NCBI RefSeq assembly: GCF_006345805.1
Contig: NW_021834974.1
Span: forward strand, 1 to 43,576
From: Octopus sinensis
Lineage: Eukaryota
Length of the DNA stretch: 43,576 bases
Reading direction: 5' to 3'
Shown: positions 7,579-37,518 of the stretch, in pieces
How the letters are laid out: each line of letters begins with the position of its first letter
Numbering within the stretch: the first letter of the stretch is position 1
Program-made: the position numbers and the translations under genes
The notes under the pieces: model-generated
The model's database searches: none
Seen by the model: only the letters and a program-made list of their open reading frames with translations
What the model was told of the DNA's origin: nothing

Positions 7579-7638
7579 ATTTACTATATATATATATATA
7601 TAATAATATATAATATATATATATATATACATATTAAC

Positions 7639-9532
7639 AGCTAGGAAAACTTTAATAGAGTTTGATAATAAACTTTGGCTAGCTAGAAAGGACACACCCA
7701 ACTTGTTCGACATCACCATGGGATCGCCGGACTCAGCGGAAGTGACTGATGTAGTGGGGATGTATCTATTGGATAACATTAGTAGGGAATTCCCTGAATT
7801 AAAAGGAGTTTTATATAGGGATACGCTTTATTTTGTGTAAATAATACCTCTAATAGGAGATTAGATCTTCTGAAAAAAAGAATAAATAATTTTTTTAAAA
7901 GTTTCGGCCTATCCATTATCATTGAAAGGGAAAACTATTCTGCTAATTATTTGGATGTCAATTGTAACATTACTAATGGAATACATGAACCTTACATTAA
8001 ACCCAATTCTAACCTAATATATATAAACCGTTCTAGCAATCACCCCACTCAAATTAAATGTGCACTAGTGCGTAACATTAGTCAGAGAATTTCTTGTTTA
8101 TCCTCAAACGAGGACATTTTTAATAAGCATTGTGATAGATACAACGCAGCATTGCTAAAAGCAGGCTACAAAAGCAAAATATGGTATATACCTAAGGGGA
8201 ATCCTCCAAACGGGGGTGGAACTATTAGGAACAACACCAATAGATTTAGGACAAACAATAATAACTATAAGAAAAGGAAAAATAGAATATATGAAAACGC
8301 CTATAATAATATAGAGGTTTGTTAACCTCAGAACGGTGGACGGTAGTTTAAATAGATCTGCGCAAACAGGTAATGGGTAATATAATATAATATACATATC
8401 AAAACTTATGGTAGATATGATAATAGTAAAGTTTACTTGCGTAATAATTTTGGGAATATTGATATAGATAGACATAACAATGACATTGGTAAGAATAGTA
8501 AACATATGGGTTGGTCAGGAATAAGGTTTTTACTAAAAACAATAACTTGATAGGCAACCCTAATACTGATAAGGATACACTTTGGCTTATTATCCCATAT
8601 GCAATGCAGATAAAAACAGACATAGTTAGAGCTTTGCATAATGTAATATTTAGGCACTTTGGTAAGGATAGGAATAAATTTAGTCATTTAATTAACAATG
8701 GTACTGTTAGAATAGGATATAGCATTACACATAATCTAGCCACCATTATCTACTCTTTTAATAACCGGAAACTTGATTACTTCTATAAAGATAGAAAGTT
8801 GAAGTTAAATAATAGAAATTTGCCTCTCTTTAATAGTATGAACAATAAATCTTTTGGAGCTAACGGGAACAACCCTCTTATAAATTATGAGGGTACCGTA
8901 CCTGCTAAGGAAAATATCAATGTAATAGATGATACTACTACTCCCAATACTAGTACTAGTATTGATAGGAATATCGCCAATAATGTTAAATTAACTCATT
9001 CGTTGAATTTGGGTTTGGATGGTAATAATAATTGTAACACTACTAATATGAATGGTGTTACAGGATTGGGGACCAATCTTGGATTACCCCAACCTGTTAA
9101 TAACTGTAATTTCAGAAACAGAAATAAATGTGTGTTTGGTAATCAATGCCTCAGGACGAAGGAGGTAGTTTACCAAGCACTGTGGATACACAATTTAGTA
9201 GTAGGGTGTATATCGGAGCAACTATGAATAGCATGAAACAGAGACTTAATTATCATAGATATACTTTTAGAAATAAAAATAGGATGTACTCTACAGGGTT
9301 AAGTGCATACATTTGGGAACTCAAAAGTAAGAACTTCGATTTTAGATTAAATTGGAAAATACTAACTTCGGCACCTGTGTATAATGGAAAAAATAAAAAA
9401 TGCTCTCTATGTATTAATGAAATCTTTTTCATTATCAAAGCGGGTAGGAATATTATTAATAACATAACGAAAAAAAATTTTTTTGCATTCCCAAACTACC
9501 GTACACTTTTTCTAGATTCAAATAGAACTTAG
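7639..9532 (+). pseudogene. PLE reverse transcriptase - GIY-YIG endonuclease, frameshifted
   Basis: FDITMGSPDSAEVTDVVGMYLL (motif B); LYRD with a frameshift at the second D; YLDV; thumb PYIKPNSNLIYINRSSNHP; Cys motif CN(F)RNRNKCVFGNQCL; VVYQ..VYIGAT..KQRLNYH..TGLSAYIWELK..CSLCINE. At least three frame breaks. Confidence 0.92.
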
Positions 9533-15346: not shown

Positions 15347-15804
15347 TACTTCGCCTCCCCGCCGAACTTGCGGGCCTTGTACCAAAATTCGAAACCAATA
15401 TTAATCCATATTTCCTTTTGAAAGTGTCAGCTTGGCCTAACGTATAGGGAGTTGCTCTCACGGTTGCAAGAGCGTGGTTTCGTTTCCCGGGCTGGGTGGC
15501 TTCTTTCGTCATTGACCTAAACATGCCGCCCTTCCATGTTGCACCAATCTGAACAGCTGTAAATGAATGACATTATGCTGATAGCATTCCTTTTAAGGGA
15601 AGAAATCTCATGAAATCGGTCAATTACACTCCATGGAAACCGAGTGACTGCCTCCATGTTTCCTAGTCCTCGACGTCGACACCCCAAAGTCCACACACAC
15701 ATTACTTTGAATGATCGGAGGGACTCTTAGTAATAACTAGGCCCATCCAGTCCTTCTTCCTCTAGACACCAACCATCGTGATTTCCCCCATCCTTGACAA
15801 TATA

Positions 15805-16363
15805 TTGGCTTGCTCGAAAAGTTCGTGCCGATTTATAGTAGCTTACCTTTTGACTTATTTTAGAACATGGTTGAATCCACAAGAGTCCATAGGATTTGAC
15901 TACACGTCCATTTAGAGCAGAGTTTAAGGAAGAAGGTTTATGTTCCATTAACCTGTGTTAATTCTGTAACCCTTTAAAATGGAAGATAAGACAGTTCATT
16001 TTCGGCACTTGATGCTTTGGGAACCAGACAAAAATTGCTGCAGCTCGGCTGGGATGTGTAACCCCACACTCCATATTCACCAGATATTGCTCTTTCGGAT
16101 TTCCACTTATTCAGGTCTCTGCAGAATAGTCTTAATTGTAAAAATTTCAATTCCTTGGATGACATAAAAAGATACCTTGATGAATTATTTGCCATGAAAC
16201 TCAATCAATTCTGGGAAGAGGGTATTTTCAAGTGAAAGGAAAGATGGAGACGCATTGTGCAACAAAATGGTTCAAATTTGGTTGATTAAAAATATAATGG
16301 CAAGTATTTATTGACCTTCTTTCTTTCCTTTACAAATCGGCACGAAATTTCCGGACAACCCAA
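15805..16363 (+). mobile_element. Internally deleted mariner (non-autonomous)
   Basis: ~30-bp TIRs (consensus TTGGGTTGTCCGGAAAGTTCGTGCCGATTT), TA at left. N-terminus MEDKTVHFRHLMLWE is fused to the C-terminal PHTPYSPDIALSDFHLFRSLQ. Confidence 0.93.
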
Positions 16364-22835: not shown

Positions 22836-24732
22836 CTTTTTTTTTCTTCTTTCAAATCTGCTTCCATTTCTTGCCGAGTGTCTTCCCGACTCCTAGGGCA
22901 AAAAAACTCATTGGTAGGCCATTAAACCAAACTCAATAGTTCGTTCATTTTTTTTTTTTTTTTTAAAGTTAAATTAAAATACATGAGCAGCAACAGTTCT
23001 CACATCGACAATGCTCTTCTCAATATGTGTGATGTACCAGTTAAGACAATCTTTTGCACTTCTTGCAGGGATGGTAAGCCAGGGATCATTCTCATATAAT
23101 TTTCTGTTCCCTTCTTGATCATTCCTAGTGCTCCTACGATCACTGGTATTGTAACCGCCTTGAGATGCCACATTTTCTCAATTTCAATGAGTAGGTCTTT
23201 ATATTTTCTGAGCTTGTCAAACTCTTTCGCTGAGATATTATGATCACAGGGAATACTCATGTCGATCAATAAGCAAACTTTATTGTTTTGGTCTTTCACA
23301 ACAATATCTGGTTTATTGGCCTTGATGGTTCGGTCTGTATGTACTGGAAAGTCCCACAGAATGGTTACATTTTCTCCTTCAGTTACAGCCTCAGGGTGGT
23401 GATTATACCACTTGTCGGCAGTTTTGATATTGTAATGCCGACTTATTAGCCAGTGGAGATATTGGCCAACTCTGTCATGTCTTAATTTATACTTCACTGG
23501 TGCCAAGACTTTACATCCAGAGATTAGGTGGTCCACTGTTTCAATCATGTCGTTGCAGAATCGGCATTTTGGGTCTGCTCCATTTTTCATCACATTGGCC
23601 TGGTAGTTCCGGGTTAATAGGCTTTGATCTTGAGCAGCCAGGATGAAACCTTCGCTCTCTGCTTTTAGCCCTGAGCTCCGTAGCCACTGATGGGTTTGCT
23701 TCTGGTCAACATTAGCTTGTTTGCTGCGGGTCACATATTTGCCGTGCAGAGGTTTCTCCTCCCACCTAACAGCCAATTGCTCGTGCGCTTTATTCGTTGC
23801 CATCATTTTCACCTTCTTTGCAACAATAGTTGCCGTACTTCCCTCGGGTTGTTCAGTTTGGGTATCCTGCACGAGATCAATAGCAAATTCTTTGCTTTCC
23901 TTTATGATAGAATGAAGCTTCTTTCGTCTCTCGTGATTATCCACGAGCTTTAGCATCCAGTCATTCGATATTTCGAGATATTTGGCCAGTCCAATTGTGG
24001 TTGTTTTGTAAGCTAGTTCAAATTGGATCAGGCCTCGACCTCCTTGGGCTCTGGGAAGGTAAAGGCGATCTACGTCTGCCTTTGGGTGGTGCATCCTATT
24101 ACAACTCAGCAGCTTGCGTACTTTCCTATCTATATTCTTTACTTCACTCATATTCCAGTTCAACACATTGTAGCTATAAGTAACAACTGGAACTGCTAAG
24201 GAATTTATAGCTAACACCTTGTTACGTGCATTTAGTTCAGATTTCAGGACTGCACGAACTCTCCTATAACATTCCTTCCTGATCTTCTCTTTCATGCTTG
24301 CATGCTGAATACCAGAGCCTTCATTTATCCCTAAATATTTGTATGTTTGTTTTTGCTCAAGCTCTCTTATGACTGTGTCAACATCTAACACGATTGAATT
24401 TGTGGTCTTCACTTTCCCTTTCTGGAAAGTGGCCTTGGCACACTTCTCAAGTCCAAACTCCATCCCGATGTCATCGCTGAATGCTTTCACGGTGCGCAAT
24501 AGGCCTTCAAGTTCATTATTGTCTTTACCATAAAGTTTTAAGTCATCCATATAAAATAGATGGCTTATTTTTTTATTGGCAATTTTATACCCATACCCTG
24601 TTCTGTTTAATTCACTTGTAAGGGGTATTAGGGCTATGCAGAATATTAAAGGTGAAAGTGAGTCACCTTGAAAAATTCCACAGTTGATGTTTATATTTTC
24701 TGAGGCAAGTACTCCATTAGAGTGGTATAATT
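22836..24732 (-). mobile_element. R4/Dong-clade non-LTR retrotransposon, 5'-truncated, (TAA)n tail
   Basis: RT-CCHC-RLE coding region, ~165-nt 3' UTR, then (TAA)n. Confidence 0.95.
23000..24730 (-). CDS. RT (motif B onward) - CCHC - restriction-like endonuclease; open frame lacking the N-terminus
   Basis: The frame extends 60 codons upstream of the track ORF: GIFQGDSLSP..ISHLFYMDDLKLY. Then YKYLG, CRFC..ETVDHLISGC, RHD, KPDIVV..IDMSIP..K..KY. No stops. Confidence 0.93.
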   Translation of the reverse strand, partial: LYHSNGVLASENININCGIFQGDSLSPLIFCIALIPLTSELNRTGYGYKIANKKISHLFYMDDLKLYGKDNNELEGLLRTVKAFSDDIGMEFGLEKCAKATFQKGKVKTTNSIVLDVDTVIRELEQKQTYKYLGINEGSGIQHASMKEKIRKECYRRVRAVLKSELNARNKVLAINSLAVPVVTYSYNVLNWNMSEVKNIDRKVRKLLSCNRMHHPKADVDRLYLPRAQGGRGLIQFELAYKTTTIGLAKYLEISNDWMLKLVDNHERRKKLHSIIKESKEFAIDLVQDTQTEQPEGSTATIVAKKVKMMATNKAHEQLAVRWEEKPLHGKYVTRSKQANVDQKQTHQWLRSSGLKAESEGFILAAQDQSLLTRNYQANVMKNGADPKCRFCNDMIETVDHLISGCKVLAPVKYKLRHDRVGQYLHWLISRHYNIKTADKWYNHHPEAVTEGENVTILWDFPVHTDRTIKANKPDIVVKDQNNKVCLLIDMSIPCDHNISAKEFDKLRKYKDLLIEIEKMWHLKAVTIPVIVGALGMIKKGTENYMRMIPGLPSLQEVQKIVLTGTSHILRRALSM

Positions 24733-24868
24733 GGGGGGAGCTAGTCGATTATATCGACCCCAGTGTGTAACTGGTACTTAATTTATCGACCCCGAAAGGA
24801 TGAAAGGCAAAGTCGACCTCGACGGAATTTGAACTCAGAACGTAAAGGCAAATGAAATGCTGCTAAGT
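24733..24868 (-). mobile_element. SINE family B internal fragment abutting the Dong 5' end
   Basis: Reverse complement of ~24959-25090. Confidence 0.9.
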
Positions 24869-31418: not shown

Positions 31419-31662
31419 TGCGTCTGTGCATGTGTGAGTATGTGTGTATGTGTGTGTGTGTGTGTTTGTGTTCGTTGAATATGCGTACGCGTGTCTTTGT
31501 GAGTGTTCCTCGAAATCTCTCGCTCTTTCTCTCTTTCTCTCTCATTTTTGCTGCAGATTTTATATCCCTTTTCCGTTCTTCTTTCGACTAATCTATTTTC
31601 TTTTCTTCCGCATTATCCAGTCACTCGTGAATATATATACATATACATATTTTACATATTAT

Positions 31663-31702
<40 letters not shown>

Positions 31703-31713
31703 GTAATATATAT

Positions 31714-31779
<66 letters not shown>

Positions 31780-31849
31780 TTTGTTTTTAAGTTTCAGCTC
31801 AGAGCTGCGGCCATGCTGATGCACCGCCGTTTAATATATATACACACAC

Positions 31850-31911
<62 letters not shown>

Positions 31912-32049
31912 AATATATATATATATATATTGCATATATATATGCATTATATATATATATATATATATATAGGTAAACAGTAAAATTAATTACAGACATG
32001 GACAAGAACATGAAACACCACAGAGACGACACAAGAACCACAGGACGGG

Positions 32050-32196
32050 ACATTCGAAGCCCTCAGTCATCAGTCAAGAACCAGATCATCTTAGCAATTT
32101 CGGCTGATTAATCTTGAGATTGCTCCGATATGGCCAGCCCGCCAAGGGAAATCTAAGCCAAGCGCATTAGATCCCCTGGAAGAAAGCTTCGAATGT
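32050..32196 (-). ncRNA. Candidate non-circularly permuted hammerhead ribozyme, copy 1
   Basis: Minus-strand order agcaATC^tcaaga ... tcagccGAAAttgct ... tcttgaCTGATGActga, enclosed by a 15-bp outer helix. Confidence 0.72.
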
Positions 32197-32834
32197 ATAC
32201 AACGAAAGGACGGAAAACGATCGAAGTACACAAACAAAAATACAGAATACGTGACACCAATAAGAATACAAAAACGTAAAAAACAATAACGGTAAAAATA
32301 AAAAATAAACAACAAAACAAAACCAGGACGTAGGACAAGGGTCTTTCGACAGGACGATTTGAGTATGGGGCTGGCTTGTGAAGTTGTGCCTAAAGGCCAC
32401 GGGGAGACGAACAAATACGTGTTGCTTCTGAGGCTGCTGAAAACGAAAAAGAGCGCTCAACAGCGGCTAGCTGTCACGTGAGAGAACAAAAGACAGGAGA
32501 AAGGGACAGATGAAAAGAGAGAGAAGGTGGACGAGGGAGGAGAAGAAAGAGACAGATCGAGGGGGCTGGAGGTGAGAGAGATAGAGAAACGTAGAAAGGG
32601 GGGGGACGGATGGAGAGGGAAAGAAAGGAAGTGGAATAAGGGAGGAGAGAGAGAGAGAGAAAAAGAGACAGATTAAGAGTCGTATCAAAGCTTGAGAAAA
32701 AAAATATACTTATCGTATAAGGACAATTGTGGATACGTAGCCGCCGATTATATAGGTAAACAGTAAAATAATTACAGACATGGACAAGAACATGAAAACA
32801 CCACAGAGGGACGACACAAGAACCACAGGACGGG

Positions 32835-32981
32835 ACATTCGAAGCCCTCAGTCATCAGTCAAGAACCAGATCATCTTAGCAATTTCGGCTGATTAATCTT
32901 GAGATTGCTCCGATATGGCCAGCCCGCCAAGGGAAATCTAAGCCAAGCGCATTAGATCCCCTGGAAGAAAGCTTCGAATGT
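32835..32981 (-). ncRNA. Candidate permuted hammerhead, copy 2
   Basis: Identical to copy 1 by eye. Confidence 0.72.
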
Positions 32982-33046
32982 ATACAACGAAAGGACGGAA
33001 AACGATCGAAGTACACAAACAAAAATACAGAATATATATATATATA

Positions 33047-33921: not shown

Positions 33922-35282
33922 TTAGTTACACGATTCGTTAGAATCTAGGCATATCAACAAGTAGGGCGCCTGTACTGGCTGGGTGCCATAGCATTGAGTT
34001 AACAGTAAGATAATACAGCAATTAGGTGTCTTTTGTTGGTAGTATACTGCAGGCATGTATATAAGTATGTATATACTTATAGGTACCAATTCCAATATAA
34101 ACTGTAAATCCAACTGAGGTAGTTTTACAGGTGTTGCGCAGGTATAAAGGAGGAACCAATCGTATTCGACTTCCTATACGTACATAGATACATATATATG
34201 TGTGAGTGTGTGTATGTGTATTTTGAATGATTGATAGGGAAGACAGTGTAATGTAAGCTTCATTAAGCACGACGATCGTTTCGGCCGCATTGTTTCATAA
34301 TATGTTACAGTGTTATAATATGCACATTTTACTACTGTGTGTCGAAAACCGGTGATGGTATGATACGTGCGTATAGTATCATACCAATAGTTCACAAATC
34401 CATTAATGTGGTAGGATGTATTGCATGTACATGTGCTCGCGCATACAAAGACACATACAGGAAGCCCGTAAATCACCATTACAATTGAAGAAATTCATAA
34501 CAAAAATAACGATATGAAAGCCAGGGTCCGTTTTAAATCAATAAGACAGATTTGCTCAAATTGGCCTCCGCGACAAGTGAGGGGCTTTGTGCCTAGAAGT
34601 GACCCGTACAAAGAGAATGCTCCGCACTAAGAGGGCGCCCCTCGTTTGAGCGAAAGACGCTATGGTGAATTTTTAGTATATGATTGTGGCTAATGATGGA
34701 GCTTCAAGCCCTCAAAAGCTTTTTGTCTGGAGACTTGCATACTACTCGAAGCATAAGACATCAGTCTTCAGCTTTTGTAGAATAGAGGGTCTCGGTGAAA
34801 ATTCTGTTATTAGGTACGGCACTTCCTAACGCCGGCTCTGATCTCAGGAGTCTTGACTGGGAAACATACGAAAACAAATTAAGTTCTATTAGAAATATCA
34901 GAACATTTCCACGTGGGCTCCATTTGTCGTACGCTATAAATAGATACAATAAATTGTAGAAATTCTAAACTTAATTTACAGACACACAGTATATTACCTT
35001 TTACGAGACAAGTGGTAATTGACTTTGAATTGTTGGTATGTTTGCTTTCATCGAACTGTGACAAAGCTCCGCTTATCTCAGAAGAAGAAAAAGCAACCTG
35101 ACTAGAAACTATATAAGCTCAAGACGAACTCAAGTGTACCACAATTTGGCGAAGGTTACCTGGCCGAAATTTCGAAGCCACAGTCAACACTCCATTTGTA
35201 AAAATATGATAAAAATGTACTTCATGAAAGGTATTGAGTACTCCGTCAGTTTAAGGTAAAATTAAATGCAGGCTCATTTGTA

Positions 35283-35741
35283 TTGGGTTGTCCGGAAAGT
35301 TCGTGCCGATTTATAGTAGCTTACCTTTCGATTTATTTTAGAAGATGGTTGAGTTCATAAAACAGGATTTGACTACACCTCCATTTAGAGCACATTTTAA
35401 GCTATCTTTTCGTGAAAGAAGGTTTATGTTCCTATAACCTGTGTTAATTCTGTAACCCTTTAAAATGGAAAATAAGGAAGTTCATTTTCGGCAATTGATG
35501 CTTTGGGAACCAGACAAAAATTGGTGCAGCTCGGCTGGGATGTGCTACCCCACCCTCCAAATTCACCAGATATTGCTCCTTCGGATTTCCACTTATTCAG
35601 GTCTCTGCAGAATAGTCTTAATGGCAAAAATTTCAATTCCTTGATGAATTCTTTGCCATGAAACCACCTCAGTTCTGGGAAGTGGGTATTTTCAAATTAA
35701 AGGAAAGATGGAGATGCATTGTGCAACAAAATGGTTCATAT
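35283..35741 (+). mobile_element. Internally deleted mariner, right TIR missing
   Basis: TA plus left TIR; same deletion junction ctttgggaa|ccagacaaaaa; LPHPPNSPDIAPSDFHLFRSLQ. Confidence 0.92.
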
Positions 35742-35779
35742 TTCTTTTCTTCCGCATATTTATATATATATATATTCCC

Positions 35780-36195
35780 TACCTATCTCCCCTCCTTCCA
35801 CGAGACCGGTGTCCGGCCAGACATGATGTTTCTCTCTTGCCCTGAATGTTGACCATCAACACGGCTTCTGTCCATCTGCCATGTTCCTGCCTTTCGGCTT
35901 TCACTTCATACACGCCAGCTCAATTCGATTCGTTCTCAGTCGAAAAACGCCTGTTGTTATTCCTTGTTGTTAGTATTCGTAATTGTGTACCATGTTCTCC
36001 ATTGTTTTTTGTCTTTGCTGCCGTATACATTCGCTAGCTTTCTTACAAAGGGGTCTAATGCTCTTAGCTTAGACTTTGGGTCAACCACATCGGACCATCT
36101 CAAGCGTAACTGCCCTAAACAGTTATGACTTCTGGTACTTGACTGAAGAAAGAAGGCCACGAATGACCCGTCTTTTTTTGCCTTTTTGTTCCATT
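35780..36195 (+). mobile_element. Diverged copy of the 31971-33034 family; decayed permuted HHR at 36027-36165
   Basis: caacacg..gtcgaaa..gtatacattcg..tctaatgc..gcttaga..atcgga..ATCtcaag..cttgaCTGAAGA..cgaatgacccgtc. Confidence 0.75.
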
Positions 36196-36760: not shown

Positions 36761-36764
36761 AATA

Positions 36765-37335
36765 TTGGGTTGTCCGGAAAGTTCGTGCCAATTTATAGTA
36801 GCTTACATTTCGACTTATTTTAGAACATGGTTGAGTCCATGAAATAAGATTTGACTACACCTCCATTTAGAGCACAGTTTAAGCAATCTTTTCGTGGAAG
36901 AAGGTTTATGTTCCTATAAACTGTGTTAATTCTGTAACCCTTTAAAATGGAAAATAAGGAAGTTAATTTTCGGCACTTGATGCTTTGGGTACCAGACAAA
37001 AATTACTGCAGCTCGGCTGGGATGTGTTACCCCACCCTCCATATTCACCAGATATTGTTCCTTCGGATTTCCTCTTATCTTATTCAGGTCTTCGCAGAAT
37101 AGTCTTAATGATAAAAATTTCAATTCCTTGGGTGACGTAAAAAGATACCTTAATAAATTCTTTGCCATGAAACCACCTCAATTCTGGGAAGAGGGTATTT
37201 TCAAGTTAAAGGAAAGATGGAGACGAATTGTGCAACAAAATGGTTCATATTTGGTTGATTGAAAATGTAATGGCAAGTATTTATGGACCTTTTTCTTTCC
37301 TTAGAAAATCGGCATGAAATTTCCGGACAACCCAA
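36765..37335 (+). mobile_element. Internally deleted mariner, both TIRs
   Basis: TTGGGTTGTCCGGAAA...TTTCCGGACAACCCAA; LGWDVLPHPPYSPDIVPSDF. Confidence 0.94.
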
Positions 37336-37375
37336 TGTATATGTATATGTCCGTTTTTCTGTCCTTGTTTCGTAT

Positions 37376-37518
37376 ACATTCGATCCCTTTTCCAAGAAAT
37401 CTAATGCTCGTAGCTTAGTTTTTCCTTGGGGCTGGCCGGATCGGAGCAATCTCAAGATTAATCAGCCGAAAATGCGAGGGTGATCCGGTTCTTGACTGAA
37501 GATTGAAGGCTTCGAATG
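37376..37518 (+). ncRNA. Candidate permuted hammerhead, copy 3 (solo repeat ~37350-37590)
   Basis: gccggatc-gg-agcaATC^tcaaga-ttaa-tcagccGAAAatgc..gatccggt-tcttgaCTGAAGAttga. Confidence 0.7.

Follow-up and report, generated by a model that had tools for sequence, protein, structure and literature searches.

Hammerhead ribozymes of types I, II and III carry their core blocks, C, G and S, in the circular order C-G-S and fold around an unknotted three-way junction. The accessible part of Eckert et al. 2023 (PMC10085705) sets out six possible orders of the blocks, assuming that CUGANGA is inseparable from stem II; the descriptors given there require CUGAUGA(U)G and then stem II, and would miss a core split at this point. 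For metazoan retrozymes, circular RNA intermediates have been proposed (available text of PMC7229834), and the accessible sections of Craig et al. 2021 (PMC8557442) list eight Naiad families with an unexplained 'HHR_half_core', in which the half cores lie 35-50 nt apart. Hammerhead variants 'with additional helices' are cited in PMC13725137.

In sequence terms, the family described here breaks the assumption that CUGANGA is inseparable from stem II; since the two are separated, the descriptors that we checked miss the family. We studied a locus in Octopus sinensis DNA within a window, by which we mean the whole stretch of 43,576 nucleotides that was analysed. All of the hammerhead strands named by the initial annotation lie where it put them on the minus strand at 32050-32196, with the letters it gave and pairing in register, and the predicted AUC^ cleavage site falls between 32118 and 32117. 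Its view that this pseudoknotted order (Z-Y-X in its notation) escapes standard descriptors is also supported. Read 5' to 3', the predicted order is P1, P2, the 10.x strand of stem II, P4, block S, block G, the second strand of P4, the stem I strand with CUGANGA, and the second strand of P1 (Table 1). Blocks C, S and G would make up a closed pseudoknotted ring, that of types SGC, CSG and GCS, with its opening between A9 and G10.1. Beyond the initial reading, the analysis below adds a kink-turn, a four-way junction and the setting in a retroelement.

Table 1. Positions in the window of the motif, its further copies and the surrounding repeat
Feature	Positions	Strand	Remark
Family A tandem array, ~1.36 units of 786 nt	31966..33034	-	between (TA)n tracts
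P1 5' strand, outer helix	32180..32196	-	partner 32050-32064
P2 hairpin, right after P1	32142..32179	-	followed by G10.1
Stem II 5' strand, 10.1-10.5, GGCUG	32135..32139	-	upstream of core
P4 5' strand, ties distal ends of stems I and II	32126..32134	-	
Kink-turn tandem GA, non-bulged strand	32124..32125	-	
Block S: stem III 16.x, C17, stem I 1.x	32112..32123	-	
Linker from stem I to stem II, 5 nt, UUAAU	32107..32111	-	identical in unrelated family F
Block G: stem II 11.x (CAGCC), G12-A13-A14, stem III 15.x	32094..32106	-	
Kink-turn 3-nt bulge and GA	32089..32093	-	
P4 3' strand	32080..32088	-	
Stem I 2.x and CUGAUGA (C3-A9)	32067..32079	-	no stem II after it
P1 3' strand	32050..32064	-	begins 2 nt past A9
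Copy 2, whole motif one unit upstream	32835..32981	-	identical to copy 1 over 147 nt
Copy 3, subfamily B	37376..37518	+	stem III mismatch (15.2), altered kink-turn base
Copy 4, subfamily C, decayed	36027..36165	+	G12 lost (UAAA for GAAA)
(TA)n tract receiving the 3' end of the array	31631..31971	.	

The array is non-coding, and its ribozyme strand is 41% U and 28% C. The four copies that had been proposed in the window are of unequal quality: copy 2 stands as an exact duplicate, whereas copies 3 and 4, which are 81% and 70% like copy 1, carry the defects given in Table 1 and fail the strict descriptor. That full helix descriptor (stems I, II, III and P4) matched twice in the window, at copies 1 and 2, and had no match in 200 dinucleotide shuffles of the window, 8.7 Mb in total. 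Several other elements lie in the same stretch. About 145 nt upstream of P1, at 32341-32350 on the minus strand, there is a 3-bp hairpin with a GNRA tetraloop; despite divergence of the flanking body, subfamilies A and B (GAAA) and E (GUAA) all retain it, and it could serve for docking or recognition. At 32473-32480 on the same strand, an E-box-like CACGTG, similar in A, B, C and E, stands at the end of a pyrimidine tract, and we assume that it could be part of an internal promoter. A repeat of ~570 nt with short inverted ends, its copies 84-88% alike (35281-35743, 36763-37336 and 15802-16363), is probably a DNA-transposon remnant.

What had been taken for a family of four copies proved to number thousands. 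Searches of the 2.72-Gb genome with window copies returned 1,379, 3,009 and 2,677 candidates, and all 40 of the scored matches to copy 1 were identical to it. Further subfamilies, D (1,446 candidates) and E (1,011 exact matches), were found as well, and families F (877 candidates) and G (1,432) surfaced in a scan of 20 long Penelope loci. No BLAST similarity links F or G to A, B, C or E across the motif, and both keep every helix in identical order. The pattern CGAAA, 23-26 nt, CTGANGA had 30,783 matches in the genome, as compared with 2,694 for a reversed control and 5,982 for a control in swapped order, which includes ordinary hammerheads. Among the first 30 pattern matches, all from one chromosome end, 16 pass for stems I and III and 13 of these also for the upstream stem II, so many copies are truncated or decayed; the counts suggest roughly ten thousand intact cores in the genome. 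Families H, I and J were found among these matches, which brings the families with this layout to about ten, several with unrelated letters. CUGANGA and CGAAA were preset by the search pattern for H-J and for the matches outside this genome, while A-E were collected by sequence similarity. The pattern list for G000:C1 also holds at least one further abundant hammerhead family, of canonical order, with a G-rich/C-rich stem II.

The layout recurs outside this genome. One of the 120 metagenome pattern matches listed, L454, has the full layout in unrelated letters, with 40 of 41 predicted pairs (at most 30 in 3,000 shuffles) and a consensus kink-turn. In prokaryote assemblies, three of 37 pattern matches pass for stems I and III, and L543 alone shows the full fold: 36 of 39 pairs, against a maximum of 30 in 2,000 shuffles. 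Its stem II is weak, its junction flawless, and it has a kink-turn. L454 and L543 were picked from 294 candidates. The contig of L543 is repeat-rich and non-coding; CCCTAA occurs 15 times in it, and it appears to be eukaryotic DNA that ended up in the bin. In L576 (G001:C254), from a bacterial genome bin, telomere-like CCCTAA repeats stand beside the ribozyme on a non-coding, AT-rich contig, probably eukaryotic DNA. Among viral contigs, none of the 120 loose matches listed and none of the 17 tight matches passed. The initial annotation had mentioned rearranged hammerheads in other animals; the accessible text of PMC10085705 reports them from metatranscriptomes, metagenomes and one bacterium only.

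The initial annotation left stem II ambiguous, and one of its two options was an upstream strand that would break the core between A9 and G10.1. From ~165 copies of subfamilies A-D, we chose 37 by hand for an alignment, 36 of them distinct. Across the 36 distinct copies of the four subfamilies, the upstream strand and 11.x are 95.6% paired, with both-side changes in three of the five pairs, although the covariation counts in this alignment mostly reflect a single split, C versus A/B/D, and the events are not independent. Pairing is of the same order in stem III (94.4%), stem I (98.1%) and P4 (87.6%), and RNAalifold picks the upstream stem II unprompted. Within subfamily C, for which 28 of 33 rows could be parsed, and with relatedness ignored, 10.3:11.3 is G-C in 17, A-U in four, G-U in four, A-C in none and otherwise in three, and 15.2:16.2 is U-A in 17, C-G in five and otherwise in six. 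Position 7 varies freely in the same 28 rows (G 11, A 10, U 7). When 195 cores were chosen by stems I and III only and grouped at 85% identity, truncated copies included, the upstream stem II was fully Watson-Crick (5/5) in 12 of the 25 clusters, which upholds this option. Its first pair is G10.1-C11.1 in 14 of 15 representatives. We conclude that stem II is, by these comparisons, built from the strand 5' of the whole core, and hence that the hammerhead core is opened between A9 and G10.1. The known variants 'with additional helices' reportedly have a one-pair stem II.

The remainder of the core is that of a hammerhead. CUGANGA, GAAA and NUH with A15.1-U16.1 are present (in all 15 representatives the H of NUH is C, A or U, G having been barred by the way sites were picked), and stems I, II and III pair in register around the core and covary across subfamilies and families, in agreement with the core conservation and helix covariation that the initial annotation had proposed to look for. 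The structure is almost certainly real and selected.

In each of the 15 representatives, P1 is formed by the strand past A9 and a partner located 5' of a hairpin; this hairpin, P2, ends at G10.1. The gap between P2 and G10.1 is 2 nt in family A and 0 nt in most families. All three junction connections have no unpaired nucleotide in seven of 15 representatives and never more than two (2, 0 and 2 in family A), as counted by a direct helix search whose penalty on unpaired bases favours low counts, MFE-based counting being unreliable. We infer a near-perfect four-way junction in which a P1/P2 stack would lie beside a stem II/III stack, with strand exchange at A9/G10.1. Because P1 and P2 abut at the opening of the core, A9 could stay beside G10.1-C11.1 without a covalent link. 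Penelope and viroid hammerheads can have one extra base between positions 9 and 10.1 (available text of PMC4209133), so the backbone can plausibly leave the core at this point. In five loci of subfamily E (L127, L130, L132, L133 and L136), a 23-nt insertion partly duplicates the P2 region.

P4 begins directly after 10.x and ends directly before 2.x; it would link stems I and II at their distal ends, where hammerheads usually have a loop-loop contact instead. Its position is that of the 'I' helix of type SGC; how that helix joins stem III directly is called unclear in the accessible part of PMC10085705. Here, both strands of P4 enter stem III through an internal loop, which in family A is a consensus kink-turn. 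Such kink-turns consist of a 3-nt bulge followed by tandem G.A/A.G pairs between two helices. The proposed stem III, AUUGCU/AGCAAU, holds for five base pairs, and the sixth pair belongs to the kink-turn. The consensus is found in A, B, C and D (with a variable bulge) and, by eye, in J, L454 and L543; E, where the consensus fails, and I have a variant; and F, G and H have AGUA/GAA loops in its place. These loops, which we take to resemble the sarcin-ricin motif, are normally straight. With typical helix values, the modelled distance between arm ends in families A, C, I and J, whose arms are near-equal in length, is 23-37 Å with the kink versus 64-73 Å without it. In family A, the kink-turn would fold the stem III-P4 arm back so that a single molecule could close, and on balance we favour folding of this family as a monomer. 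No paper combining hammerhead, kink-turn, retrotransposon and permutation was found in the open-access literature.

The same split core might, however, be active only as a dimer with a neighbouring tandem copy. This would be a sub-case of the explanation that we prefer, and we regard it as a tentative possibility. The 1.x and 11.x strands of one copy would pair with 2.x-CUGANGA and 10.x of the neighbour, which would confine cutting to multimeric transcripts. The retention of the consensus kink-turn by A, B, C, D, J and both outside contigs speaks for one molecule folding back, as do the near-equal arms that bring the ends within the shorter of the two distances; families F, G and H point the other way, since a monomer could not use their straight loops and the ends would stay at the larger distance without a sharp bend. 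The stem III of family G is a palindrome of 4 bp, as might suit a dimer, and dimeric cleavage has been described for tandem hammerheads (PMC4209133, PMC7229834 and PMC6765202, in their available text).

The motif is carried by tandem, 5'-truncated, non-coding units of 740-890 nt that target (TA)n. Family A forms partial tandems of ~780 nt, and in B, C, E and G most copies are spaced 742-893 nt apart. The ribozyme strand of the units is 41-43% U and weakly folded, at about -0.16 to -0.19 kcal/mol per nt. Of the 30 family A loci, some of which belong to a common array, 25 have the 3' end of the array at one and the same base, next to (TA)n and ~153 nt 3' of the predicted cut; in the remaining five the array continues past the edge of the locus. 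The 5' ends occur at many different positions. A fixed 3' end in a microsatellite, 5' truncation and partial tandems are the hallmarks of a Penelope-mobilised element, and non-coding tandems of high copy number with one ribozyme per unit are those of a non-LTR retrozyme. The stretch is present in 20 public entries (seven studies, four organism codes), none of them on record as RNA. Four runs that were examined consist of contigs and have neither ends nor joints in the motif, which speaks neither for nor against expression; a depth peak over the core is due to other subfamilies.

The genome also contains Penelope-like elements with a reverse transcriptase followed by GIY-YIG, in open frames of up to 1,124 codons. 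These autonomous elements carry ordinary type I hammerheads, and seven of nine end in (TA)n 34-37 or 148-158 nt beyond the hammerhead, four of the nine at the 148-158-nt distance. They are likely helpers of the units described here. A search for a sequence link between the two, covering 50 loci of 8,375 candidates, found none beyond separate insertions and short weak matches: a Penelope fragment next to a subfamily B copy (L046) is parted from it by a microsatellite, and split-core matches in two Penelope loci (L173 and L174) are separate insertions. Canonical type I hammerheads with a palindromic stem III, often as inverted pairs, were seen in L171, L172, L174, L175, L179, L180 and L186. The window itself has a broken Penelope-like element at 7607-9529 on the plus strand, which starts in (TA)n and has RT-like frames, a Cys-rich linker and a GIY-YIG-like frame; two fragments of it gave no Pfam match. 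At 23003-24748 on the minus strand, a 582-codon open frame with a Pfam RVT_1 match is a fragment of a LINE-type reverse transcriptase.

These data allow a life cycle to be proposed. Multimeric transcripts of a tandem array would cleave themselves after AUC into unit-length RNA, which a host ligase would circularise. A Penelope-like reverse transcriptase/GIY-YIG enzyme, acting in trans, would nick (TA)n, prime at an internal UAUA motif ~153 nt 3' of the cut and roll round the circle, so that arrays would share one fixed 3' end and have scattered 5' ends. The end pattern fits target-primed reverse transcription from an internal TA motif on circular or multimeric RNA, a scheme that has been proposed for Penelope elements and retrozymes (PMC4209133 and PMC7229834, accessible parts).

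It is likely, judging by sequence, that the split-core motif cleaves itself. One could also imagine a hammerhead-derived fold that does not cut, or cuts only with the help of a protein (the Penelope enzyme, for instance, or a host protein that binds kink-turns), and that serves as a recognition element for retrotransposition. A break beside the catalytic G8/A9 could indeed impair the active site, and the arrays end elsewhere than at the predicted cleavage site. We nevertheless consider a non-cutting or protein-dependent fold unlikely, given that position 7 and the helices change freely, in contrast to the catalytic bases, NUH, A15.1-U16.1 and G10.1-C11.1, which are retained. The pseudoknot-free MFE fold of copy 1 (z -1.7) puts the strands of stems I and II in other helices, at -54.5 kcal/mol versus -49.4 for the best scaffold that leaves those strands free; with a competing fold of lower energy, misfolding is possible.

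The initial annotation was headed as an intact Z-Y-X permutation, which is the published type SGC and needs stem II directly past CUGANGA. In its S-G-C order and in the shortness of the stretch between stems I and II, the motif does match an ordinary type SGC (Eckert 2023) with a small insertion or bulge, for which the extra base known between 9 and 10.1 (PMC4209133, in part) is a precedent, and family A offers CUGA/UCAG, the other of the two options for stem II, or GGCU/AGCC. Across subfamilies, these downstream options are 53.5% and 62.5% paired, the first barely above slid controls, which reach 50%, and we rejected both. The canonical place of stem II after CUGANGA is fully Watson-Crick in none of the 25 clusters (one with a G-U), as in two control windows; in families G and I, the strand past A9 makes four weak pairs with 11.x, one of them contiguous Watson-Crick; and in all 15 representatives this strand is taken by P1. 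An ordinary type SGC is thus very improbable. Chance complementarity in one ancestral repeat, passively amplified, can be set aside almost entirely: copies within a subfamily do descend from one master and are not independent, but families in unrelated letters and two outside contigs share all the helices, a cross-family covariation that refutes it, and the descriptor and the pattern passed nothing in the shuffles and among the 120 viral matches listed.

The explanation that we prefer is a hammerhead of new connectivity, which is probably carried by a superfamily of non-autonomous, retrozyme-like retroelements; the sequence shows its helices, their covariation, the conservation of the core, the copy number and the end pattern. 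We lean, with less assurance, towards a fuller reading: natural hammerheads would have a seventh topology in addition to the six considered possible. It would be active, with the four-way junction re-docking the CUGANGA strand and the kink-turn closing the fold, and would serve as the processing ribozyme for a large class of animal retrozymes that had so far escaped notice, with more than ten thousand copies here and unrelated versions in other organisms. It may also explain some of the Penelope-type elements for which half a core has been reported. If the motif is active, the best-studied small ribozyme tolerates a helical junction beside its catalytic G8/A9, engineers gain a new insertion point inside the core, and an animal genome holds an abundant, recently amplified class of retroelement.

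Comparison with Rfam, as had been suggested, gave no hammerhead among 150 of the 179 weak matches in the window. At the gathering score there was also none in six loci, a blank of little weight because L171, one of the six, holds an ordinary type I motif by our own descriptor. The open-access literature that was searched yielded no description of the split-core topology or of the family, and the accessible portions of Forgia 2023 and Perreault 2011 have no helix inserted at A9/10.1.

Every hammerhead core feature that we tested for in the sequence is present except the covalent A9-G10.1 link, which places the motif outside types I-III, SGC and CSG as these are defined. Its order is S-G-C and not the circular C-G-S order of types I, II and III. 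Type SGC is matched in order and in the helix joining stems I and II but not in an intact block C, with stem II 1-2 nt past CUGANGA; type CSG is matched in that 10.x precedes S, but CUGANGA comes last. With SGC (HRIMA-1) and CSG, as far as the accessible text of PMC10085705 describes them, the motif shares the catalytic bases, the pseudoknotted ring order, a short linker and a fourth helix between stems I and II. It differs from both in having block C interrupted at A9/G10.1, with P1 and P2 bridging the gap, in running its P4 strands into stem III through an internal loop (the kink-turn in family A), and in its setting, high-copy animal genomic repeats as against metatranscriptome RNAs. The metazoan non-LTR retrozymes of Cervera and de la Pena 2020 (PMC7229834, in part) are likewise non-coding tandems with one hammerhead per unit and thousands of copies, but have type I hammerheads in highly self-paired units of 150-450 nt, whereas the units here are ~740-890 nt long, U/C-rich and weakly folded. 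Penelope hammerheads (available text of Cervera and de la Pena 2014, PMC4209133, and of PMC8557442) resemble the family in their partial tandems, 5' truncation, (TA)n targets and tolerance of an extra nucleotide at 9/10.1, and differ from it in being minimal type I dimeric motifs.
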